This document shows positions 3,797 through 27,291 of a stretch of 27,491 nt of DNA, in pieces. The stretch is taken from IMG/VR virus record IMGVR_UViG_3300034656_000069; one strand, given 5' to 3'. The notes beneath the pieces were generated by a model. That model was not told where the DNA came from. It did not search any database and saw only the letters and a program-made list of their open reading frames with translations. Both the position numbers and the translations under genes were made by a program. This stretch comes from an uncultured virus (IMG/VR IMGVR_UViG_3300034656_000069). Lineage: Duplodnaviria > Heunggongvirae > Uroviricota > Caudoviricetes. Numbering within the stretch: position 1 is the first letter of the stretch; every line of letters begins with the position of its first letter.

Positions 3797-4402
3797 TTAT
3801 GCTGCATTTTTGTACAGCCTGTTGGTCTGCTTAATCACTTGGTATATCGGCTCCATGGCCTGGCTTTCCAGTGAAGCCATAATGTCGCCGATCTTTGACC
3901 ACTCGCGGTGCCATCCATCCTGCAGCCAATTCTTAGAAACAATCTTCACGCCCATGTATTCCCGGCAATAAAATGCTATCTCCAATGGCTGCCATAGCGG
4001 CCTTGAGCCATCCATATCATTCCTATCCTGCATCATGCGCGCCTGAATAAGCGCCTCTACGCGCTCTTTGCGTGCAGTGCGGTAACTGGACCACTCGGGC
4101 GTTTTCTCGATGTACAGCGCAAGAATGGCCTCGGCTACGTCATCTAGGTGCTGGTTAGCTGCACCAGTGTCCGCTAAACAAAGCCAATGCCCAACGGAAG
4201 CCAGCAGGGGAGACTCCCGCTCCATGCGTCGGATGGCGGAATAAACGGGCGTGTACTCATCCCCAAAGCAGCCGCCACTCTTGGCCCCGCTGGTCTGCAC
4301 CTTTGCGCCTGCCTCTTCGAGATCGGCTGCCGCCTGGGTGCGTATACCCGATTCGAAGGCGTTTGCCCATGAGACGCGAGGATTACTGTCCAAATAGCTC
4401 AT
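3797..4402 (-). CDS. Putative late-gene antiterminator (Q-like)
   Basis: 201 aa; last gene of the nin region directly before pR'/tR' and lysis genes. Positional call. Confidence 0.6.
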   Translation of the reverse strand: MSYLDSNPRVSWANAFESGIRTQAAADLEEAGAKVQTSGAKSGGCFGDEYTPVYSAIRRMERESPLLASVGHWLCLADTGAANQHLDDVAEAILALYIEKTPEWSSYRTARKERVEALIQARMMQDRNDMDGSRPLWQPLEIAFYCREYMGVKIVSKNWLQDGWHREWSKIGDIMASLESQAMEPIYQVIKQTNRLYKNAA

Positions 4403-9637: not shown

Positions 9638-9656
9638 GAATGGAACCTCTCAAAAG

Positions 9657-9714
9657 TGTACTTACAGTACATGATAGACCTGTACTGACAGTACATTCAA
9701 GTACTGGCAACATT
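9657..9714. promoter_or_regulatory. OR operators with PR and PRM
   Basis: Palindromes TGTACTTACAGTACA (9657-9671) and TGTACTGACAGTACA (9681-9695), half-site at 9700; PR (minus) TTGAAT-18-TATCAT; possible PRM CTGACA-17-CAACAT placing +1 at the cI ATG (leaderless). Confidence 0.75.
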
Positions 9715-9720
9715 GAACGC

Positions 9721-10482
9721 ATGGTTCAAACTCAACAGTTACGCGATGAATTCACCTCGCGGCTCAAAAAAGCCATTGCCAGCAATGGGATACCTATCCA
9801 CGGATCGGGCGCGTACCTGTGCCGATTAACAAAAGTGACGCCAAAAGCAGCCAGCAAATGGCTTAACGCGGAGTCGATGCCAGGCGCCGCAAAGATGAAG
9901 GCTATTTCTGACGGCTTAGGCGTTAGGCTTGAGTGGCTGCAGTACGGCGTGGAGCCGATGACCTCAGAGGTCAAGACACTGCATAGGCGACCAATTACCT
10001 CCGAGCTAGAGCTGCACGACACCGAGATAGTCGAAGGTGATGGCCCGCTAGAATATGATGAGGTGGAATTGCCCTGCTTTAGAGAGGTAGAGTTTGCTGC
10101 TGGGGATGGGCGAACGCAGGTAATTGAAAACCACGGGGCATCAATGCGGTTTAGTCTGGCAAGGCTGTCTCGCGCTGGCGTGCAGCCTAGTCATGCCGCC
10201 TGCGCAACAGTGAAAGGCACTTCAATGGAGCCCACGATAGCTGACGGCTCGCCTATAGCGATTGATAAAGGCTCGGTACATATTGTTGACGGTAAGATAT
10301 ATGCGCTTGAGCACGGCGGAGAGCTGCGAGTTAAGCGGCTTTACAAGATGCCGTTGAACAGAATCAGGTTGGTTAGCGATAACGCAGAAGAGTACCCAGA
10401 AGAAGTTTATATGCTCGGCCATGAAGATGCGCCGCGTATTCTAGGCCGTGTTTTCTGGTGGGAAGTGTTCGATTCCGCCTAA
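9721..10482 (+). CDS. cI: CI-like repressor (HTH + S24 peptidase)
   Basis: N-terminal HTH; FAAGDG cleavage site; GTSMEP catalytic Ser; LRVKRL catalytic Lys; ILGRVFW. Confidence 0.93.
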   Translation: MVQTQQLRDEFTSRLKKAIASNGIPIHGSGAYLCRLTKVTPKAASKWLNAESMPGAAKMKAISDGLGVRLEWLQYGVEPMTSEVKTLHRRPITSELELHDTEIVEGDGPLEYDEVELPCFREVEFAAGDGRTQVIENHGASMRFSLARLSRAGVQPSHAACATVKGTSMEPTIADGSPIAIDKGSVHIVDGKIYALEHGGELRVKRLYKMPLNRIRLVSDNAEEYPEEVYMLGHEDAPRILGRVFWWEVFDSA

Positions 10483-10504: not shown

Positions 10505-10528
10505 ACCCGCCCCAGAGGCGGGTTTTTT
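10505..10528 (+). terminator. Intrinsic terminator after cI
   Basis: CCCGCC-N5-GGCGGG followed by T6. Confidence 0.8.
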
Positions 10529-10600: not shown

Positions 10601-10642
10601 TGTACTTTTAGTCTTGACGATGTTGTACCTATGGTTCATATT
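10601..10642 (+). promoter_or_regulatory. PL promoter with OL operators
   Basis: TTGACG (10614)-17-CATATT (10637); operator variants TGTACTTTTAGTCTT (10601-10615) and TGTACCTATGGTTCA (10624-10638). Confidence 0.7.
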
Positions 10643-10676: not shown

Positions 10677-11051
10677 ATGGAAATCACACAGGGCGAATGG
10701 GTGGCAGAAGTTGAAACCACCAAAGGCAGCGAAGGAATGACCCGCATGGAAGCCACCTATCTGCTGTGCGTTGCCAACGGAATGACCCACAAGGAAGTAG
10801 CTAGGCAGTTGGGGCGCTCACCGGAAACGGTAAGCAAAGGGCTGAAACGAGCCTACCACCGCCTAGGCGTCAGCAAGGCCACGGCAGCGGTAGCCAAGGC
10901 CCAGGCCAAAGGATGGATTCGATACGCAGGGAAGATCGCCATGTGCGCGCTGCTATCCGTAGCAATGCTCACAGGCACAGACGATGCGATGCGCCGTAGT
11001 GGCAAGACTCGTATCGCCCGAAAGGCGGAAGAGGTTCAAGCCATCGCCTGA
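10677..11051 (+). CDS. LuxR/GerE-type HTH protein, first gene of PL operon
   Basis: MTRMEATYLLCVANGMTHKEVARQLGRSPETVSKGLKRAYHRLGV. Confidence 0.85.
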   Translation: MEITQGEWVAEVETTKGSEGMTRMEATYLLCVANGMTHKEVARQLGRSPETVSKGLKRAYHRLGVSKATAAVAKAQAKGWIRYAGKIAMCALLSVAMLTGTDDAMRRSGKTRIARKAEEVQAIA

Positions 11052-11055
11052 CCGG

Positions 11056-11093
11056 AAGCTGACCGGACAACAGCTTGCTCTTTACACAATCTG
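11056..11093 (+). promoter_or_regulatory. Hairpin plus boxA (nut-like antitermination site)
   Basis: AAGCTG-N9-CAGCTT followed by TGCTCTTTACACAA, close to the rrn boxA consensus TGCTCTTTAACA. Confidence 0.65.
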
Positions 11094-11319: not shown

Positions 11320-11496
11320 ATGACGACGCAATCAAGAATATCAGTAGCAGTAGATGAGTCGGTGGCGGTTAACGCTACCAAGGAATCGATAGCGAAGCGC
11401 ATTGATGAGCTGGCCAGCACGGCGGATCAGATCAGTAGCGACGATCTGCACGAGCTAGCCAACAAGGTACGAAGTGAGCCGGTTATTGTTTCTTAA
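11320..11496 (+). CDS. Hypothetical protein (58 aa)
   Basis: MTTQSRISVAVDESVAVNATKESIAKRIDELASTADQISSDDLHELANKVRSEPVIVS*; SD GGGAG. Confidence 0.5.
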   Translation: MTTQSRISVAVDESVAVNATKESIAKRIDELASTADQISSDDLHELANKVRSEPVIVS

Positions 11497-11695
11497 AGCC
11501 CTTGCCACTGGTTCCAAAGCCGCCTAGGGCGCTATCGCCAATCTCTTTGGCGGCTGAATCAAGGTGATCAAGGCATGCTCGCTTGGTGCCCATTTCAGAG
11601 CCACAAGCGGTGCAAGTTACCTGCTCATCATCATGGTCGGGAATATTGAATTCAGTATTGCGGCAGTCAGGGCATCGCGCCGTGATTGTTGTCAT
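11483..11695 (-). CDS. Small zinc-ribbon protein, inverted moron-like gene
   Basis: CPDC...CTAC; SD AGGAG; -10-like TATCCT upstream; opposite to operon direction. Confidence 0.7.
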   Translation of the reverse strand: MTTITARCPDCRNTEFNIPDHDDEQVTCTACGSEMGTKRACLDHLDSAAKEIGDSALGGFGTSGKGFKKQ

Positions 11696-11763
11696 CGTTT
11701 TTAGCTCCTGGTGTGTGGAAACTTCAGGATAGCTAAGACGCGGGAACTGCGATAGTGCCATTA

Positions 11764-11905
11764 GCCCGTTCACTGAGCGGGCATCGGGATGAATTTGGCG
11801 CGTGTCGGCTCGGCACGGTCGGCTAAATGTGAAGCGACGGCGGTGCCGCGCATGTCGTGGAGCGGCGGGGCCCATTGAACATCGCCCGCCGAGTTCATCC
11901 CGATG
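11764..11905 (+). ncRNA. Structured RNA module, copy 1
   Basis: Hairpin GCCCGTTC-ACT-GAGCGGGC, then 19-bp stem 11782-11800/11887-11905. Confidence 0.55.
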
Positions 11906-11931
11906 TTTGATCACGATCACAGGAGAGCGGT

Positions 11932-12126
11932 ATGGCGAACAGAGTTTTAGACCCAGCTATTTCGGCTCTAAAGTCGAGGGCGAGAGAGCTAGGCTCCGAA
12001 TCGGTGATGACGACCGACGAAAACGGTAACACGTTAATACTCATCGGAGCCGATGATCCTGATAAATCAGGCCGTTTGGCGGCATGCATGCTCCAGATAG
12101 AGCAGCAATCCAGAGCTAGCCGCTAA
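11932..12126 (+). CDS. Hypothetical protein
   Basis: 64 aa; SD AGGAG. Confidence 0.6.
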   Translation: MANRVLDPAISALKSRARELGSESVMTTDENGNTLILIGADDPDKSGRLAACMLQIEQQSRASR

Positions 12127-12142
12127 TCAACAGGAGGTGGGT

Positions 12143-12370
12143 ATGAAGACGAACGTAATAGAAATAACAGTTAGCGGAAAAGTCGGGTGCGGAAAAAGCG
12201 AAGTGCTTGAGGTTATCCGCAACGCTCTTGACGAGCACCTCGGCTATCCGCGAACGCACATTAAGATCGCTGGCGTTAACCCTGTGGGTGGAATAGAGGA
12301 AGCAAGGCACACAAGGCAAACCACGCGAAACGAAAAAACGGTATTTGTTCTAAGGGAAGAAGATTTTTGA
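12143..12370 (+). CDS. Small protein with P-loop-like motif (75 aa)
   Basis: IEITVSGKVGCGKSEV; SD AGGAGGT. Confidence 0.7.
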   Translation: MKTNVIEITVSGKVGCGKSEVLEVIRNALDEHLGYPRTHIKIAGVNPVGGIEEARHTRQTTRNEKTVFVLREEDF

Positions 12371-12407
12371 GCACCACCCGCTCCGCTGGGTAACGCGGCC
12401 TAGAGCC

Positions 12408-12733
12408 TGCCCGTTCGGCTGAGAATAGAGCGGGCATCGGGAAGCTGGGTGGTACTGGCGCGACGATGCCAGCGAAGGCATGGATGAAGTAATGAGCATT
12501 CTCGCCAGCCAGCTTCCCGATGCAGTGAAAGATACGCCCCGAAGCGGGTGCTCCCGTATGCCTTATCGGTGGGGGTTAATGGAACGAAAAGATAGGGCCA
12601 CTGCATCACGCTATCAGGGGATCAAACGGCATTGCGTCCGCCCCGATGACGGCAACCACTATCGCGACACCTAAAGCTCGGGCGTCACCGGCCAGCCCAA
12701 TGATCAAGAGCCGGATTTAGGGGGACCGCATCA
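12408..12733 (+). ncRNA. Structured RNA module, copy 2 plus a degenerate copy
   Basis: Hairpin 12408-12436; 15-bp stem 12434-12448/12509-12523; GATGCAGTG/CACTGCATC 12519-12607; degenerate unit 12613-12733. Confidence 0.55.
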
Positions 12734-12904
12734 TGCCCAGTATTTAATTAACACCTCGCTATGGAATTGTGTGCTGCGCCCTGGCGAGGTCAGGGCGCAT
12801 CGGAAAGGGTGAAGGGCAAGCGCCCTGTAGCGTGAGTAGCGCGTCTCGCATACATGACAAGCTGGATACTAGCCGTCTTAACGGTGAGGGGAAGGAGAGA
12901 TTCT

Positions 12905-13048
12905 ATGTGTGGGCATGAAAAGGAAAAAAGTCGATGTCGTGATTGTGGGAGGTTTGTCGAGAAAGCCCGGCGAAAACCAGCTTCATCAAACGCAGAGCCA
13001 TTATGTTGGAAGTGCTGGCTCGAATATGACGACCCGGCGTTTATGTAA
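12905..13048 (+). CDS. Small zinc-finger protein (47 aa)
   Basis: CRDC...CWKC; SD AAGGAG. Confidence 0.6.
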   Translation: MCGHEKEKSRCRDCGRFVEKARRKPASSNAEPLCWKCWLEYDDPAFM

Positions 13049-13055
13049 CACCGGC

Positions 13056-13330
13056 GCCAGCAGCGGCTCTGCTGGCCATCAGGAAGGGCTCTGTTGCCGA
13101 TAGCGGTCGGCAGGCATGGGTGCGGTGGAGCCAAGCGAAGGTTCGACAACTTCGGTCCATGTTCCGTGAAGCAGAGCCCTTCCTGATGCAGTGCGACGTG
13201 GAAAGCAGACGCGTTTGGAGATAAGCACCACTCACCAGTGAAAAATCGTACGCAAGTAGCTGGTGGGGCCAAAGCGGGGGCCCACCCCTGCGGTGTCAGC
13301 CGGAGTAGCGCCCGGCCACTGCATCACCCC
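13056..13330 (+). ncRNA. Structured RNA module with tRNA-like 3' domain
   Basis: Hairpin 13056-13076; perfect 17-bp stem 13077-13093/13172-13188; TGATGCAGTG/CACTGCATCA with stacked GCCGG-N8-CCGGC arm. Confidence 0.6.
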
Positions 13331-13480
13331 ATTCCGGCAACTCACAAGAAGTCCCTACCAGTTGGCATGGCCTCTTGCTGAGTCGCCATGCCCGCGCTGC
13401 TTCCCCTTTGCCGACTCACTGCACTGGCACTGCGAGGGGCGCAGATACAGCAGGCAGCGCGCCTAATTAGAGAGGTGTTT

Positions 13481-13828
13481 ATGAAAACGTTCGAAGCTGA
13501 TTTTGAAATGCAGATCAAGGTGGAGATTGAGAATCCCGAGGCGGTAAAGGCTTACTTCATCGATGGAAAATGGAGCGAGGTCTTTTGGGACATCGTCGAT
13601 CTTGAGGATTTCGTGGGCGACCTTTCCCGCGCATTCGAAGCTACACCCGAATATCTCCGCGAGGGCTTGTTCTTAAAGGAAGTTGAGGGCTTTGGTATTT
13701 ACAGCCGTAAGCCTGGGGAAAAAGGCTATCAGCTTAGCGCCGAAGGGGTTTTGGAGATAGGCAGCGCAATTGGGATAACTGTCGATGATCTGGAAGTGGC
13801 GTTTGTCACGGAGCGCACCGGTGGCTAA
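13481..13828 (+). CDS. Hypothetical acidic protein
   Basis: MKTFEADFEMQI...; SD GAGGTG. Confidence 0.7.
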   Translation: MKTFEADFEMQIKVEIENPEAVKAYFIDGKWSEVFWDIVDLEDFVGDLSRAFEATPEYLREGLFLKEVEGFGIYSRKPGEKGYQLSAEGVLEIGSAIGITVDDLEVAFVTERTGG

Positions 13829-16403: not shown

Positions 16404-16850
16404 ATGTTGCTTAAAAGCGAATGCTCAGAACATCAGTTTAAGTGTAGAGGCGCTGGATACGGCTACCTGCAACACCGAGGTAAGCAGGTTTTGGCTCATC
16501 GTCTCGCTTACTGCCAGGCCAACGGCCTAGACATTTCGGATATAGATGCGCAGGTAGTTCGTCACAAATGCGACAACCCAAAGTGCGTCAATCCAGAGCA
16601 CCTGGAGCTAGGAACGCAGGCTGACAATATAGCCGATATGCACTCAAGAGGTCGCGGGCTTAAAGGAGAGATGATTGGTAATTCAAAGCTGACAGATGAA
16701 CAAGCGGAAGAGATAAGGCGTCTCTACAAGCCTCGCTCAAAAGACCGCAATCAATACCAGCTAGCCAAGAGGTTCGGCATAACCCAGTCACAAGTCAGCA
16801 TGATAATTACCGGCAAGCGACGCAAACATCAATCAGGAGATGCAGCATGA
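16404..16850 (+). CDS. HNH homing endonuclease with C-terminal HTH
   Basis: LAHRLAY...RHKCDNPKCVNPEHLELGTQADN; SKLTDEQ...LAKRFGITQSQVSMI. Confidence 0.9.
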   Translation: MLLKSECSEHQFKCRGAGYGYLQHRGKQVLAHRLAYCQANGLDISDIDAQVVRHKCDNPKCVNPEHLELGTQADNIADMHSRGRGLKGEMIGNSKLTDEQAEEIRRLYKPRSKDRNQYQLAKRFGITQSQVSMIITGKRRKHQSGDAA

Positions 16851-17614
16851 GTCAATCAGCCCAAGTACATCAGCACCCAAGCCAACAGGTGCAGGCCACG
16901 AACCCATTTCAGGCAATGGCCAGCCGTATTAGCGTCGACCCTGACACTGTCCAGCAGATCATGACCAACACGCTGATGAAGGCGAAAGGCGGCAACCAAC
17001 AGGTCAGCCATGAAGAGCTGATGGTCTTTATGTCCATTGCCAACGAGTACCGTCTTAACCCGCTAACAAAAGAGATTTACGCGTTCAACAATCGCGGTGC
17101 CATTCAGCCCATTGTCAGCATAGATGGCTGGCTAAAAGTCATTAATACCCACCCGCAGTTCGATGGCATGGAGTTTGATGACAAGCTGAACGATAACGGC
17201 GGACTAATGGCGATCACTTGCCGCATTTACCGCAAAGATCGGGGACGCGCCACCGAGGTCACTGAGTATCTGAGCGAATGCCAGGGTAACTCTGAGCCAT
17301 GGAAGAAATGGCCAGTCCGCATGCTGCGCCACAAGGCCACAATTCAGTGCGCCCGCTACGCTTTCGGCCTCTCTGGGATTATCGACGAGGACGAGGCCGA
17401 CCGCTACCGCAGCGCCAACGTTGAGCGGGACGTTACGCCGCAGCGTGAGGCGTTGGAGTATTACAGCGACGTCGACTTTAAGAAGAACTTTCCCACTTGG
17501 CAGTCCGCCATTGAGTCAGGTAAGCGCACGCCCGATCAGATTATCGCCATGGTCAGCAGCAAGGCGATTCTCACCGACGAACAGAAGCAAGCTATTAACG
17601 AGGTGCAGGCATGA
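16847..17614 (+). CDS. bet: Single-strand annealing recombinase (Bet/RecT family)
   Basis: EYRLNPLTKEIYAF, IVSIDGW, PWKKWPVRMLRHKATIQCARYAFG; upstream of exonuclease. Confidence 0.92.
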   Translation: MSQSAQVHQHPSQQVQATNPFQAMASRISVDPDTVQQIMTNTLMKAKGGNQQVSHEELMVFMSIANEYRLNPLTKEIYAFNNRGAIQPIVSIDGWLKVINTHPQFDGMEFDDKLNDNGGLMAITCRIYRKDRGRATEVTEYLSECQGNSEPWKKWPVRMLRHKATIQCARYAFGLSGIIDEDEADRYRSANVERDVTPQREALEYYSDVDFKKNFPTWQSAIESGKRTPDQIIAMVSSKAILTDEQKQAINEVQA

Positions 17615-19266
17615 ACATCCATGACGTAGTTCAAGGCTCAACCGAATGGGGCGCGCTACGCGCCTCTTGTTTTACGGCTAGCGAAGCACCGGCAATGGCC
17701 GGAGTCAGCAAGTACCAGTCGCGCTCTGAGCTGCTCAAGCTCAAATACACTGGCGAAGTGCCGGAGGTAACGCCAGCGCAGCAGCGGATCTTCGATAAGG
17801 GCCATGCCGCCGAAGCCAAGGCGCGCCCGATTGCCGAGCGAATCATTGGCGAGGAGCTGTACCCCTGCACCGCCACCCACGACGACCATGATTGGATGCT
17901 GGCCAGCTTCGACGGCTGCACCATGATGGAAACCGTGATCTGGGAACACAAGCTCATCAACGACGAGCTGCGCACCGCCACGGCTGAAACGCTGGCCGAG
18001 CATTACAAGGTGCAAATGGATCAGCAGTTAGCGGTCAGCGGTGCCGAGAAGTGCCTGTTTATGGCGAGTAGCGGTACCGAGGAGGATTGCAACTGGTTCT
18101 GGTACACCACCACGCCGGAGCGCATCGCGGCGCTGTTTGCAGGCTGGGCGCAATTTAAGGCCGATATGGAAGCCTACCAGCCCCAGGCGCAAACAGTCGC
18201 ACCGCAAGGCGAAGCGCCGGACAAGCTGCCCGCGCTTAGCATTCAAATGACCGGCGGCGTGCAAGCCAGCAACCTACCCGACTTCAAAGCGCAAGCGCTG
18301 GCGATGATCGACGGCATCAAGACGGAGCTAGTCACCGACAAGGACTTTGCCGACGCAGAAAGCACGGTCAAGTTCCTGCAGAAAGGCGAAAAGCAGCTTG
18401 AAGAAAGCAAACAGCGCGCCCTTGAGCAAACCGCCAGCATTGCCGAGCTGTTCGACACGATAGACGAACTGCGCGAAACCATGCGGCAAAAGCGGCTCTA
18501 TCTGAACAAGCTGGTGAAGGCAGAGAAAGAAAACCGGCGCATCGAGATTCAGCTCAATGCGGCTGCAGCGTTTGATGCCTTTCTTGCCAAGCTGGATTGC
18601 CCGTTAGAGCCATCGCACAGCCTGGATATTGCAGGCGCGATGAAAGGCAAAAAGACCATCGCCACATTGCAAGCCGCCGCCGATGACGAAATAGCCCGCG
18701 CCAAAGTCGAATGCCAGCAGCTAGCAAACAAGATCAATGGCAACAAGGCGCTGCTAGATGCCGAGCAAGGCGAGTATGCCTTCCTGTTTAGCGATTGGCG
18801 CGATCTGATCCAGAAAAAGCGCGATGACTTGCAAGCCGTTATCGCCTCACGCATTGCGCAGCACAAAGAGGTCGAGCAGAAGAAGCAGGACGCCGAGCGC
18901 GAACGCATCCGCCAGGAGGAAGCGGCCAAGGCGCAGCGGGAAGCCGCCGAGGCAGAAGCCAAACGCCAAGCCGAGGAAGCCGAGAAGCGCAAGCCAGAGC
19001 CTCAGCCAGAGCCGGAACCGGAACCGGAACCGGAACCGGTGCCCGCCGCTGCCCAAGGCAAGCCGCTGGACGTCAGCCGCCTGAGTGCTGCCGCCGATAG
19101 CTTCCAGCGCGGCAGCCAGGTCAAAGCGCCAGAGCTAGTTACTATCACGCGCAAGGAGTACGACCGATTGCTCGCCGCCCAGGCCATGCTCGACGCCCTG
19201 GAAGCCGCAGGCGTGGATAACTGGTCAGGGTATCCCGAAGCCATAGCCCAACTGAACGCAGCCTAG
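17611..19266 (+). CDS. YqaJ/lambda-Exo family exonuclease with long coiled-coil C-terminal extension
   Basis: QGSTEW...R...FTASEA, GH..E, LASFDG, WEHK, Y..QM.QQL; helical extension and EP-repeat linker. Confidence 0.9.
   Translation: MNIHDVVQGSTEWGALRASCFTASEAPAMAGVSKYQSRSELLKLKYTGEVPEVTPAQQRIFDKGHAAEAKARPIAERIIGEELYPCTATHDDHDWMLASFDGCTMMETVIWEHKLINDELRTATAETLAEHYKVQMDQQLAVSGAEKCLFMASSGTEEDCNWFWYTTTPERIAALFAGWAQFKADMEAYQPQAQTVAPQGEAPDKLPALSIQMTGGVQASNLPDFKAQALAMIDGIKTELVTDKDFADAESTVKFLQKGEKQLEESKQRALEQTASIAELFDTIDELRETMRQKRLYLNKLVKAEKENRRIEIQLNAAAAFDAFLAKLDCPLEPSHSLDIAGAMKGKKTIATLQAAADDEIARAKVECQQLANKINGNKALLDAEQGEYAFLFSDWRDLIQKKRDDLQAVIASRIAQHKEVEQKKQDAERERIRQEEAAKAQREAAEAEAKRQAEEAEKRKPEPQPEPEPEPEPEPVPAAAQGKPLDVSRLSAAADSFQRGSQVKAPELVTITRKEYDRLLAAQAMLDALEAAGVDNWSGYPEAIAQLNAA
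19012..19039 (+). repeat. In-frame hexamer tandem repeat (CCGGAA)4 encoding a Pro-Glu linker
   Basis: ccggaaccggaaccggaaccggaaccgg within the exonuclease gene. Confidence 0.85.
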
Positions 19267-25016: not shown

Positions 25017-25580
25017 ATGCGAATCAAGCCGATTGAGATAGAGCGCTTTCACGAAAAGTACATCGTCGATGAAGAGTCGGGCTGCTGGATATGGCAGGCG
25101 GCCACAAGCGGGCGCGGTTACGGAACGATGAAAATAGGCGGTAGGAAAGAGGCGGCGCACCGCATCTCTTATGAGATCCACAAAGGCCCAATACCGGAGG
25201 GTATGCTTGGCTGTCATGAGTGCGATGTACCGCTGTGCGTAAATCCCGATCATATTTTCCTGGGTACGAACCTGGATAACACTAGGGATATGATCAGCAA
25301 GGGCAGGGAACGATACGTTGGCCAGAAAGGCGCGAGCAACCCCAAGGCTATACTGGACGATAAGAAGGTTGTTGAAATCATCAAGCTGATTGCCAAAGGA
25401 ATGACCAACCGTGCCATTGCCAATCGGTTTGGCGTATCGCAAGGCACCGTCAGCTTGATCAGGTTAGGGAAGTGCTGGCCAGATATACCCAGGCCAGATA
25501 ACGAGAACTTCAAGCCATACCGATCACTTAGATCGACAGCCGCCAAAAAGGCGGCTTCTTTGTTTCTAGGGGATGCATAA
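25017..25580 (+). CDS. HNH homing endonuclease with C-terminal HTH
   Basis: CWIWQ...GYG...AAHRISYEIHKGPIP...CHECDVPLCVNPDHIFLGTNLDN. Confidence 0.9.
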   Translation: MRIKPIEIERFHEKYIVDEESGCWIWQAATSGRGYGTMKIGGRKEAAHRISYEIHKGPIPEGMLGCHECDVPLCVNPDHIFLGTNLDNTRDMISKGRERYVGQKGASNPKAILDDKKVVEIIKLIAKGMTNRAIANRFGVSQGTVSLIRLGKCWPDIPRPDNENFKPYRSLRSTAAKKAASLFLGDA

Positions 25581-25717
25581 TGAAAGCACAAGCCAATCAA
25601 GCTCAAATTAGCGAGGGGCAGGCCGCTATCATTAGAATGCTCGCCCGGCAGGCTGCCAATGATCATTTAAAGGGGAAGGATAATGCGCGCCGTAGTTTAC
25701 GCACGGTACAGCAGTGA
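25580..25717 (+). CDS. Small protein (45 aa), candidate recombination directionality factor
   Basis: MKAQANQAQISEGQAAIIRMLARQAANDHLKGKDNARRSLRTVQQ*; TAATG coupling to HNH; overlaps integrase start. Confidence 0.45.
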   Translation: MKAQANQAQISEGQAAIIRMLARQAANDHLKGKDNARRSLRTVQQ

Positions 25718-27214
25718 AAAACAAGACTCGACCAGCATTGATGACCAACTAAGCGTATGCCGCGCCCGAGCCAGTCGGGACGGCTTCGATATTATCGGCA
25801 TGCATCACGACGGCGCTGTATCAGGCTCTACGCAAGTCGGCAGCCGTGAAGGCGGCAAGGCGCTGCTAGCTGACGCTATGGCGGCGCGATTTGATGTGCT
25901 GTTACTGGAAGGGCTTGATCGCCTCAGTCGTGATCAAGTGGAGCAAGAGAGCATTGTTCGCCGCCTGGAGCATCGCAATATACGCATTATCGGCGTGTGT
26001 GATGGCTACGACTCAGAAGCGCCTGGGCGTAAAGTTATGCGCGGTGTGCGAGGTCTGATCAATGAGATTTATCTTGATGACCTGCGGGCTAAAACGCACC
26101 GGGGGATGTCAGGGCAGTTTGAGCGTGGCTTTATTGCAGGCGGAAATCTCTACGGCTATGACATCGTTAAGACCGAGCAGGGCAGCCATTACGTTATTAA
26201 TGAAACGGAATCCGCTGTAGTGCGCTGGATATTCCAGTCGGTGGCCGAAGGCAAGGGTTATCGATCCATTGCTCTGCGCCTAAATGAAGATGGCGTTCCC
26301 GCGCCAAGAGGTGGTAAGTGGTCGGTGTCTGCCGTGTACGGTTCGCCAGTGAAAGGCACTGGCATGATCAACAATAGCCTGTACGCGGGCATCTATACGT
26401 GGAACCGGTCGCAGTGGGTTAAAGACCCTGATACTGGCAAGCGCAAACGTATAGAACGGCCAGAGAGCGAATGGAAGCGCGTCGACATGCCTGATCTGCG
26501 CATCGTTGATAAAGCCACCTGGGCTAAGGTTCGCCACCGGATCGACAGCGGGCGTGACGAATACGGGCGCAAGGTTTCGGCGCGACCAATGAAAAGCCTG
26601 CTGGGCGGAATACTTCGATGCCCGCATTGTGGTGGTCCAATGGCTGGCCGTGACCGCAACTACTACGGATGTAGCGTGCATCACAACGTAGGTCCGTCCG
26701 CGTGCCCTGACTACCGCCTAAACCGTGCGCTGGTTGAAAAGCGCATCTTGACCATTGTGCGTAAAGACTTGCTATCCCCATCGGTAGCACGGCTTTACGA
26801 GAAAGAGTTTCGGCAACACCTAAAAGCTAATAGCACCGCAGAGAAAGTGCGGCAGGCAAGGGAACGGCTAGCCGAGGTTGAGAAAGAAATCACCCGCATG
26901 ATCGATGCTATCGTTTCGGTCGGGGCGTCACCAGCGCTGAGCGCAAGACTGAAAGCGGCAGAGCGAGAGCGTGACACGCTGAATGAAATAGCAGGCAGCG
27001 GTGACCAAATAGTCGAGGTGCCGGACATTCGCGGGATATTTAAGCGGCAGTTACTGAATTTAGGTGAAGCATTAAAGAGGGAGCCAGAAATTGCCAGGGC
27101 GGCAATGGGACAGATATTCGGGAAGGTGGGGCTTGAGCTTCGAGGGAATGAAGTGTGGGGGCAAATAAAAACATCGCCAGCACTGTTAAAGGTGTCTGGC
27201 GATGCTTTTGAAGA

Positions 27215-27236
<22 letters not shown>
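25683..27236 (+). CDS. int: Large serine recombinase (prophage integrase)
   Basis: YARYSS catalytic Ser, LDRLSRD, recombinase domain, Zn ribbon CPHC...C...C, coiled coil; at the prophage end. Confidence 0.95.
27163..27204 (-). terminator. Terminator downstream of the tRNA, located inside the integrase CDS
   Basis: CATCGCCAG/CTGGCGATG stem followed by TTTTTATTT on minus strand, ~10 nt after the tRNA CCA. Confidence 0.7.

Positions 27237-27291
<55 letters not shown>

Follow-up and report, generated by a model that had tools for sequence, protein, structure and literature searches.

What are the paired sequences that recur between the early genes of a marine temperate phage, and what role could they have there? 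The question is raised by positions 11,764 to 13,330 of the IMG/VR record IMGVR_UViG_3300034656_000069, an uncultured virus of the Caudoviricetes, whose whole stretch of 27,491 nucleotides (nt) is referred to here as the window. At this locus, a GC hairpin abutting a long stem is repeated on the + strand, interleaved with very small genes, and each unit of hairpin and stem is called a module below. The window is a marine lambdoid prophage, and the comparison with its relatives revealed a conserved structure of the sense strand, which is placed between cistrons past a nut-like site, is associated with a portable leader and forms a border of gene cassettes. The reading that we prefer, with a probability of roughly one half, is that modules are intercistronic elements for the processing and stabilisation of RNA, of an RNase III-like kind, and that their conserved ends double as homologies for the shuffling of cassettes.

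A covarying module with a fixed box

The window holds three complete modules, A (11765-11905), B (12410-12607) and D (13056-13325), as well as a 5' half-module, C, and an orphan 3' half. The inverted repeats of A (11782-11800/11887-11905; 19 nt, 89%, reaching 23 positions with G.U pairs), B (12434-12452/12505-12523; 19 nt, 95%) and D (13077-13093/13172-13188; 17 nt, 100%) all rank among the five best short-range inverted repeats of the 27.5 kilobases (kb), and they are the only ones in the window of at least 17 nt at 89% or more, all lying within 1.4 kb. A GC hairpin was found immediately 5' of each of these long stems, with a gap of 0, the helices that it abuts measuring 15-23 bp, and the z scores of the folds compared with shuffled sequences were -4.2 for A, -2.7 for B and -3.65 for D. 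A covariance model, which was trained on 14 modules and recovered held-out members at 30-38 bits, matched exactly A, B and D on the + strand of the window, each with an E value of <1e-11. The four units listed in the initial annotation are all located where they had been placed.

In module A, a hairpin of 7 base pairs (bp) with the loop ACT (11765-11781) abuts a long stem (11782-11905, arms 11782-11804/11883-11905; 59.8 bits), which has the core CATCGG/CCGATG and a branched interior of 78 nt. The hairpin of module B (12410-12434) has a conserved loop and precedes a stem with a 50-nt interior (12435-12522, arms 12435-12453/12504-12522; 72.8 bits). A small hairpin upstream of it, CCGC...GCGG (12383-12398), accompanies B-type hairpins in relatives. 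Module D consists of an 8-bp hairpin with the loop CGGCT (13056-13076) and a stem (13077-13188, arms 13077-13097/13168-13188; 63 bits) with the core CATCAG/CTGATG and a 70-nt interior. As had been noticed before, the GATG of the 3' arm in B and D also begins a second helix, GATGCAGTG/CACTGCATC followed by AC, which is 9 bp long in both modules and shares the GATG with the long stem (B: 12519-12609, arms 12519-12527/12599-12607; D: 13185-13327, arms 13185-13193/13317-13325).

Module C (12777-12887) is not closed locally, in agreement with the initial annotation. Its hairpin (12777-12797) is followed by CATCGGAAAGGG from 12798 and by an interior, and there is no local 3' arm. Window positions 12792-12887 are 92% identical to a relative, L074, in which the counterpart of C has its closing 3' arm, so that C represents a module truncated at 12887. 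Where C breaks off, a mini-gene for 47 amino acids (aa) and module D begin. This gene, located between C and D (12906-13048, +), encodes a Cys-rich, zinc-finger-like protein with no Pfam or PHROG match. The degenerate unit that had been proposed at 12613-12733 was borne out in part: an orphan CCGATG (12643-12648) and CATCAT (12729) were found, within an orphan 3' half-module that runs to GCATCAT (12643-12734, the last word at 12728-12734), but the covariance model gave it no score. Open reading frames (ORFs) of very small size inside the stems (e.g. 11789-11878 and 13094-13186) were considered as the cause of the structure and were rejected, because their positions are not conserved between modules.

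A total of 37 modules were examined, consisting of the three in the window and 34 from IMG/VR contigs, metagenomes and Halomonadaceae genomes. Their anatomy is a GC hairpin followed, without a spacer, by a helix of 10-26 positions and a variable interior of 18-216 nt. The first six pairs of the helix are C-G, A-U, U-A, C-G, G-C and G-C (CAUCGG/CCGAUG), each found in 31-34 of the 34 distinct sequences, while pairs 7-14 occur as two to six pair types each. In a MAFFT alignment of 17 hand-anchored modules, 94.7% of the cells were paired, compared with 35-50% for slid partners, and 40 cells had changed on both sides, compared with 13.0 +/- 2.7 after shuffling (0 of 500 shuffles reached 40). The 34 distinct modules were aligned by fitting to the model, which leans toward structure, and gave 97.8% pairing (slid partners 33-50%) and 84 double changes, compared with 22.9 +/- 3.6 after shuffling. 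Arms taken from different modules pair in 57% of cases at positions 7-14, whereas own arms pair in 132 out of 136. In the preceding hairpins, too, changes are compensated, and loops such as GGCTGAGAATA, that of module B, are constant. That the stems differ and yet keep pairing, as claimed from the window alone, was borne out in both alignments.

Over the 37 modules, G.U exceeded A.C (50 vs 14), therefore it is the gene-sense strand that folds. All three window modules and their relatives are in the sense of the flanking genes. We also observed that the 5' arms are purine-rich and Shine-Dalgarno (SD)-like at arm positions 5-12 (GGGAAG, GGAGAGGG and GGGATGG), and that the 3' arms are pyrimidine-rich and anti-SD-like.

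The initial annotation could not assign the array to a named family, and the comparison with Rfam 15 led to the same outcome. At gathering thresholds, a tRNA (27218-27291) was the only match in the whole window. With E values of up to 10 allowed, the region 11400-13600 had a single match, of 14 bits, to a fragment of nuoG, and a relative (L073) had three sRNA matches at chance level, over a terminator. In nine related loci, searched with E values of up to 0.1, only the tRNA of another relative, L071, was matched. Nothing relevant was found in the literature on intergenic stem-loops of Halomonas prophages. The family of structured elements is real and uncatalogued.

The proteins of the two-gene cassette between A and B led to four IMG/VR contigs, and the B-type hairpin pattern led to further viral and metagenome contigs. 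Other matches to this pattern, in ribosomal-protein-like coding sequence and in Nitrospirae, cyanobacterial and other metagenome-assembled genomes, were dropped as chance because they were without hairpin and stem. With strict filters, the covariance model matched 11 out of 151 Halomonadaceae genomes, with one match listed per genome, and 0 out of 151 genomes of an order sample, where the figures are matches rather than copy numbers and zero means not found in the genomes searched. Out of the 12 host loci scanned (the 11 from the Halomonadaceae scan and L146), six adjoin a repressor-like or phrog_3282 prophage gene and a seventh has a holin. The repressor-linked matches lie on the same strand as the cI-like repressor or phrog_3282 gene, within about 1 kb downstream of it. 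A neighbouring protein of the window has its relatives in Vreelandella and Halomonas prophages, and close prophages of these genera, obtained through the phrog_4657 protein (L001-L006), contained no modules.

Near and distant DNA searches of a phage GenBank collection with the region gave no match, and the combined pattern of the A/B core and the 3' core found nothing in viral contigs. Genome-wide, the same pattern was found at 64 loci, all of them chance-like and none in Halomonas; 63 have stems of only 8-14 pairs, and the lone longer stem (17 pairs, in a Dyella genome) lies inside a low-complexity GGGAAT-type repeat. A generic scan for long stems of at least 12 pairs was too permissive for use. 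The 8-mer GSCATCRG was strand-skewed over whole phage records, probably due to codon use, and was not used. So far, the module family is confined to lambdoid prophages of Halomonadaceae, in the early-left (PL-type) operon. In one 57-kb IMG/VR record (G003), the module region is repeated at both ends (L133 1237-1439 = L135 14840-15044), which is a terminal redundancy or a circular permutation of the assembly.

The distribution bears on whether modules could be selfish repeats of the MITE, REP or REPIN kind, which would spread while doing nothing for the phage. Similarly to these, modules carry inverted repeats at their termini, in which conservation is highest at the outermost bases, they are 38-246 nt long and intergenic, and a tetranucleotide stands beside the hairpin, as it does in REP elements. 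A repeat of this kind is difficult to reconcile with one listed match per genome in 11 of the Halomonadaceae genomes, with none in the order sample and with the prophage genes at seven of the 12 host loci. Moreover, no target duplication was seen, the orientation always follows the genes, and a single transposase could not recognise the modules because the arms differ between copies. We therefore regard selfish spread as highly improbable.

Placement in the early operon and a proposed processing of its transcript

Upstream of the array, the + strand carries a gene for a cI-type repressor (9640-10482), followed by a terminator with a U tail (10505-10523), a promoter resembling PL (10614-10642) and a first gene of sigma-r4/LuxR-like type (about 10677-11051). 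A boxA-like word (GCTCTTTACACAA) comes next, at 11076-11088, and the modules are located 1.1-2.5 kb from the PL-like promoter. After the boxA-like word, the + strand carries small genes followed by genes for HNH, RecT, RecE, a helicase, methylases and a serine integrase, and the - strand carries those for replication O, DnaB, NinB, lysis and terminase. From the gene order and strands, the module array is therefore in the early-left operon, in the sense of transcription. The word at 11076-11088 resembles the boxA consensus, and its position 3' of the PL-like promoter suggests a nut-type antitermination system. It sits after the first gene and not before it. Exact copies of the consensus were seen in L074 (about 3852-3864) and L089 (about 1969-1981). 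The sigma-like protein had no relatives in genome contigs.

The hairpins begin 8-70 nt past a stop codon or gene edge. In 9 of the 37 modules, an SD sequence and a start codon follow the stem 20-26 nt on, forming a common leader before unrelated genes. In the window, this conserved leader of 26 nt (11906-11931, +; ..GATCAC..CAGGAGAGCGGT, with the SD) fronts the 64-aa gene (11932-12126), which together with a 75-aa gene (12143-12370) makes up the two-gene cassette between A and B (11932-12370, +), and leaders of this type also front unrelated genes in relatives. The common form ..CAC GA...CAGGAGAGCGNT ATG was observed at window 11906-11931 and in L156, L071, L087, L133, L137 and L153, and it looks like a portable translation-start cassette that is attached to the module. 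Most other modules continue with the second helix, GATG(C)...(G)CATC, and then with A/C-rich sequence. This helix has at least 7 bp in 20 of the 37 modules, compared with 21% of 2829 background GATG sites. Another conserved leader (13362-13480, +) precedes the next gene; relatives carry different genes behind it, and homology resumes there.

In the model that we propose, modules would be transcribed within the antiterminated early transcript and would act as RNA punctuation. A double-strand-specific endonuclease, most likely the RNase III of the host, would cut near the fixed base of the long helix, leaving the upstream message with the GC hairpin at its 3' end, where it could protect it. The downstream message would be left either with a paired 5' end, the GAUG...CAUC helix, which may be stabilising, or with a defined leader.

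In one sample, metatranscriptome contigs without loose ends have position 12519 as their start in runs X16 and X17, and position 13185 in run X16. Both starts are the same nucleotide in modules B and D, the G with which GAUG begins after CC or CU, while the contig of a DNA run spans 12351-13385 and passes through both places. RNase III typically cuts with a 2-nt stagger, and a 2-nt staggered cut here would fall exactly after CAUCGG and before GAUG. The matching starts can be taken as a weak sign of cleavage, and together with the anatomy of the modules they make the RNA processing suggested in the initial annotation plausible. Positions 12373-12518 and 12994-13184 had no cover by RNA contigs, which is not readable as absence of transcript. 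The RNA-labelled run X15 is not evidence of transcription, because its 11.3-kb contig spans genes of both strands.

Several observations weigh against this processing model. The transcript runs are assembled contigs, which are unable to prove RNA ends; both matching starts are from one sample, and they could be breaks of the assembly graph at mosaic borders, or DNA in the RNA library. The upstream RNA contigs stop at 12360-12372, near the stop codon and before the hairpin, which is not as predicted by a 3' end protected by the hairpin. To our knowledge, RNase III does not need a fixed 6-bp box, therefore the conservation of CAUCGG/CCGAUG is unexplained by this enzyme, and the box may point to another protein or to a role at the DNA level. 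Some stems, with 10-16 positions, are short for RNase III. Lastly, closely related phages carry wholly different long stems, which indicates swapping and not slow compensatory change, so the covariation counts are not each independent selection events.

The nearest analogues of modules are the RNase III sites of T7 and lambda and the PeSL cassettes of T4, and modules belong to neither. Intercistronic RNase III sites are found in the early and late transcripts of T7, and an RNase III hairpin in the N leader of lambda. Like these sites, modules are folded elements between cistrons on the sense strand of a long polycistronic phage transcript, and cutting them would leave an upstream hairpin and a short, defined downstream leader. 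Like the lambda N-leader site, they are in the PL operon behind a nut site. What sets them apart from the known sites is the separate hairpin that abuts the stem, the fixed box of 6 bp, the branching of interiors that can reach 216 nt, and the GAUG that a second helix has in common with the long stem. The likeness to the known sites is one of layout. The stems in the window have 19-23 positions including 0-2 mismatches, and those of the family 10-26, compared with about two turns of double-stranded RNA for RNase III.

Another explanation is that the structures act at the level of transcription, as put-like factor-independent antiterminators, pause sites or terminators, or as structure by which long untranslated stretches are shielded from Rho. 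By our own count, 68% of 11696-13480 is non-coding (1219/1785 nt), which is unusually high for a phage and would suit such a role, as would the heavy folding of this stretch and the true U-tailed terminator just behind the module in L073, L074 and L089. However, no U-run follows the hairpins or stems in the window, and the terminator scan of the + strand was empty between 10523 and 14015. The put element of HK022 consists of two stems and occurs once, immediately downstream of PL or PR, whereas modules, compared with it by placement only, are present in several copies between genes at 1.1-2.5 kb from the PL-like promoter and not once behind it, and the boxA-like site upstream already marks a nut-type system. 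The put-like antiterminator offered in the initial annotation was not upheld for these reasons of placement. As the fixed core and the covarying long stem would also be left unexplained, an action on transcription itself is very unlikely.

Cassette borders and recombination

Homology to relatives, determined by BLAST, and to contigs of public sequencing runs has 22 breakpoints or joints in 11700-13500, and by our count 11 of these are at module landmarks. The landmarks are the hairpin with the 5' core, the 3' core or the CACTGCATCAC word, and together they take up about 10% of the stretch. For L071, L073 and L074, homology stops at 12445, 12451 and 12444, respectively, just past the CATCGG of module B, and L074 resumes at window 12792 onward. 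In L076, homology is limited to 11901-12402, and the two-gene cassette (11932-12370) moves as a unit. In one DNA contig, the interior of module A is replaced (joint 11786 to 11905). A cassette of 718 nt (12596-13313, +), containing the orphan half, C, the zinc-finger-like gene and D, is missing from a relative's contig (run X15), where the joint 12595->13314 has 14 letters in common; the direct repeat GGCCACTGCATCAC, at 12596-12609 and 13314-13327, bounds the cassette.

Exchange was also seen within modules. The hairpin of L074 is chimeric, with a 5' arm of the L073 type and a 3' arm of the L079/L087 type, the crossover lying in the conserved 10-nt loop, and it keeps only 4 of 7 pairs. The stem CATCGGAGAGGG... 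was found behind three different hairpins, and L079 has a different stem between the A-type hairpin and the leader. The suggestion that the units are exchange sites for accessory genes is supported by the breakpoints at modules, and the sequence comparison identifies modules as borders where related phages swap gene cassettes.

As the crossovers are at several positions, no window protein is common to all five module-bearing phage records, and the window encodes RecT, RecE and NinB, we read the exchange as recombination through short homologies in conserved regulatory sequence. The module ends are alike while the interiors differ, therefore, in this reading, the ends are the short homologies used in RecE/RecT-type swapping, insertion and deletion of gene cassettes.

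Borders of a similar kind are found in T4-type phages, in which PeSL (promoter-early stem-loops) are small, conserved regulatory motifs repeated between non-essential small genes of a plastic region, where they are recombination points for the insertion, deletion and replacement of genes between close relatives; each PeSL combines a sigma-70 promoter with a terminator stem-loop (PMC2839356, PMC4122927). Modules resemble PeSL in that they recur where the indels and replacements that separate close relatives begin or end, and they are unlike PeSL in that their conserved part is an RNA-type helix with covarying arms and their hosts are temperate lambdoid phages, not T4-like ones. Also unlike PeSL, no promoter-like site and no + strand U-tailed terminator were found in 11700-13400.

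Cassette borders could also arise if modules were DNA-level recombination sites similar to attC, with folded single-stranded DNA recognised by a recombinase or nuclease that cuts at CATCGG/CCGATG and moves cassettes. The attC sites of integrons are imperfect palindromes, one for each cassette, with conserved short end boxes and the core RYYYAAC/GTTRRRY. Modules likewise conserve only short core boxes at their ends, the rest of the stem being self-complementary and free to vary if paired, with a variable centre, one site per cassette and one strand that folds better than the other. Orphan half-sites exist (C at 12798; 12643-12648), and cassette-sized indels and replacements end at modules. In contrast to attC, the core is CATCGG/CCGATG, there is an extra hairpin, and the conserved SD leader and constant gene orientation point to expression. 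The crossovers are located at the hairpin loop, the core, the 14-nt repeat and the next gene's leader, which resembles short-homology recombination and not one fixed cut. Among the 30 window proteins scanned, there was no integron integrase, other tyrosine recombinase or HUH enzyme, the only recombinase being a large serine integrase beside a tRNA attachment site, and, as stated above, the five module-bearing records have no window protein in common. An attC-like function is thus unlikely.

In a more far-reaching form of this idea, temperate phages would possess a dedicated cassette system of their own, comparable to the integron, with modules as its hairpin-defined sites, and a putative enzyme would recognise the folded top strand or its RNA and cut at CAUCGG/CCGAUG. 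We consider this to be unlikely. If it were true, phages of Halomonadaceae would trade accessory genes, tRNA genes and tRNA-mimic RNAs as whole units, and it would be this enzyme, not RNase III, that keeps the box conserved.

Other features of the window concern its recombination genes and its mosaicism. The RecE/YqaJ-like exonuclease (17611-19266, 551 aa) has C-terminal residues (509-546) that match the RecBCD inhibitor gp5.9 of T7 (Pfam PF25708, E 9e-18; PHROG 6234), making it a recombination exonuclease fused to an anti-RecBCD module. Three free-standing homing-type endonuclease genes (1066-1692, 16404-16850 and 25017-25580), one GIY-YIG (under the Pfam cut-off) and two HNH_3 with HTH, may add to the mosaicism. 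The end of the large serine integrase gene (25683-27236) reaches 22 nt into a tRNA-Met gene of the other strand (27215-27291), and this overlap is probably the attachment site at the prophage end. Upstream of the modules, a 70-aa zinc-ribbon protein is encoded on the - strand (11483-11695), opposing the early operon and overlapping the end of a 58-aa ORF (11320-11496). Its gene is missing from the L071 contig, in which homology resumes at 11700.

Module interiors and the meaning of the family

The inserts of the window modules are 52-86 nt long. They had been described as unrelated inserts of ~60-85 nt; the interiors do differ, but B and D have a common 11-nt word, and T-arms are found in some relatives. 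T-arm-like hairpins (4 bp + UUCRANN) were found five times in 4 of the 37 interiors, compared with 0.2 expected. For three of these hairpins, the distance to the 3' end of the module is 15-21 nt, which is roughly the spacing of the T-arm and acceptor strand in tRNA. In L156, a 5-bp T-arm directly abuts the 3' arm, as in tRNA, and the interior of L073 folds as a four-way junction.

The T-arm-like hairpins, the position of the T-arm in L156 and the junction in L073 raise the possibility that the insert is the product, and that the long stem is a processing stalk from which a small stable RNA is freed, e.g. one that mimics tRNA or acts as a decoy for tRNA-targeting defences, or one that resembles a Y RNA, in the way that rRNA stalks free pre-rRNA. 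A true tRNA gene in the equivalent variable slot of L071 would fit with this. That gene (3807-3883) is a tRNA-Met(CAT) with an encoded CCA end and an unusual T-loop (ARAGORN; Rfam 45 bits), and it is preceded by a hairpin and CATCACC. YrlA and other bacterial Y RNAs also join a long stem, formed from the two ends, to a tRNA-like domain (PMC4201824). Modules are similar in their long, end-formed stem and, in a few cases, in a T-arm and D-arm-like interior, and they are different in that most have no tRNA-like part and all are embedded in an operon between genes. In addition, 33 of the 37 interiors are without a T-arm, and the interiors have no common fold. They can be as short as 18-20 nt (L157 and L150), so the insert is dispensable. 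ARAGORN made no tRNA call inside any module, Rfam gave no tRNA, Y RNA or YrlA match to the modules, and no TROVE/Ro domain was present in the window proteins. The proposal that released inserts are the point of the element therefore does not agree with the shortest interiors, and we consider it doubtful.

If modules are processing and stabiliser elements with ends that recombine, as we propose, a single folded element of small size would seem to serve twice, in punctuating the early transcript and in marking the points of cassette exchange. Because of the support from covariation, the absence from Rfam and the restriction to the prophages of one bacterial family, modules are a candidate for a new RNA family. 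The fixed six-pair box may lead to a specific RNA- or DNA-recognising protein, and it leaves room for a dedicated recognition system. The module could be used to mark cassette borders in marine phage genomes, and such borders often enclose defence and counter-defence genes. The family offers a concrete case in which to test how temperate phages arrange their accessory early genes and renew them.

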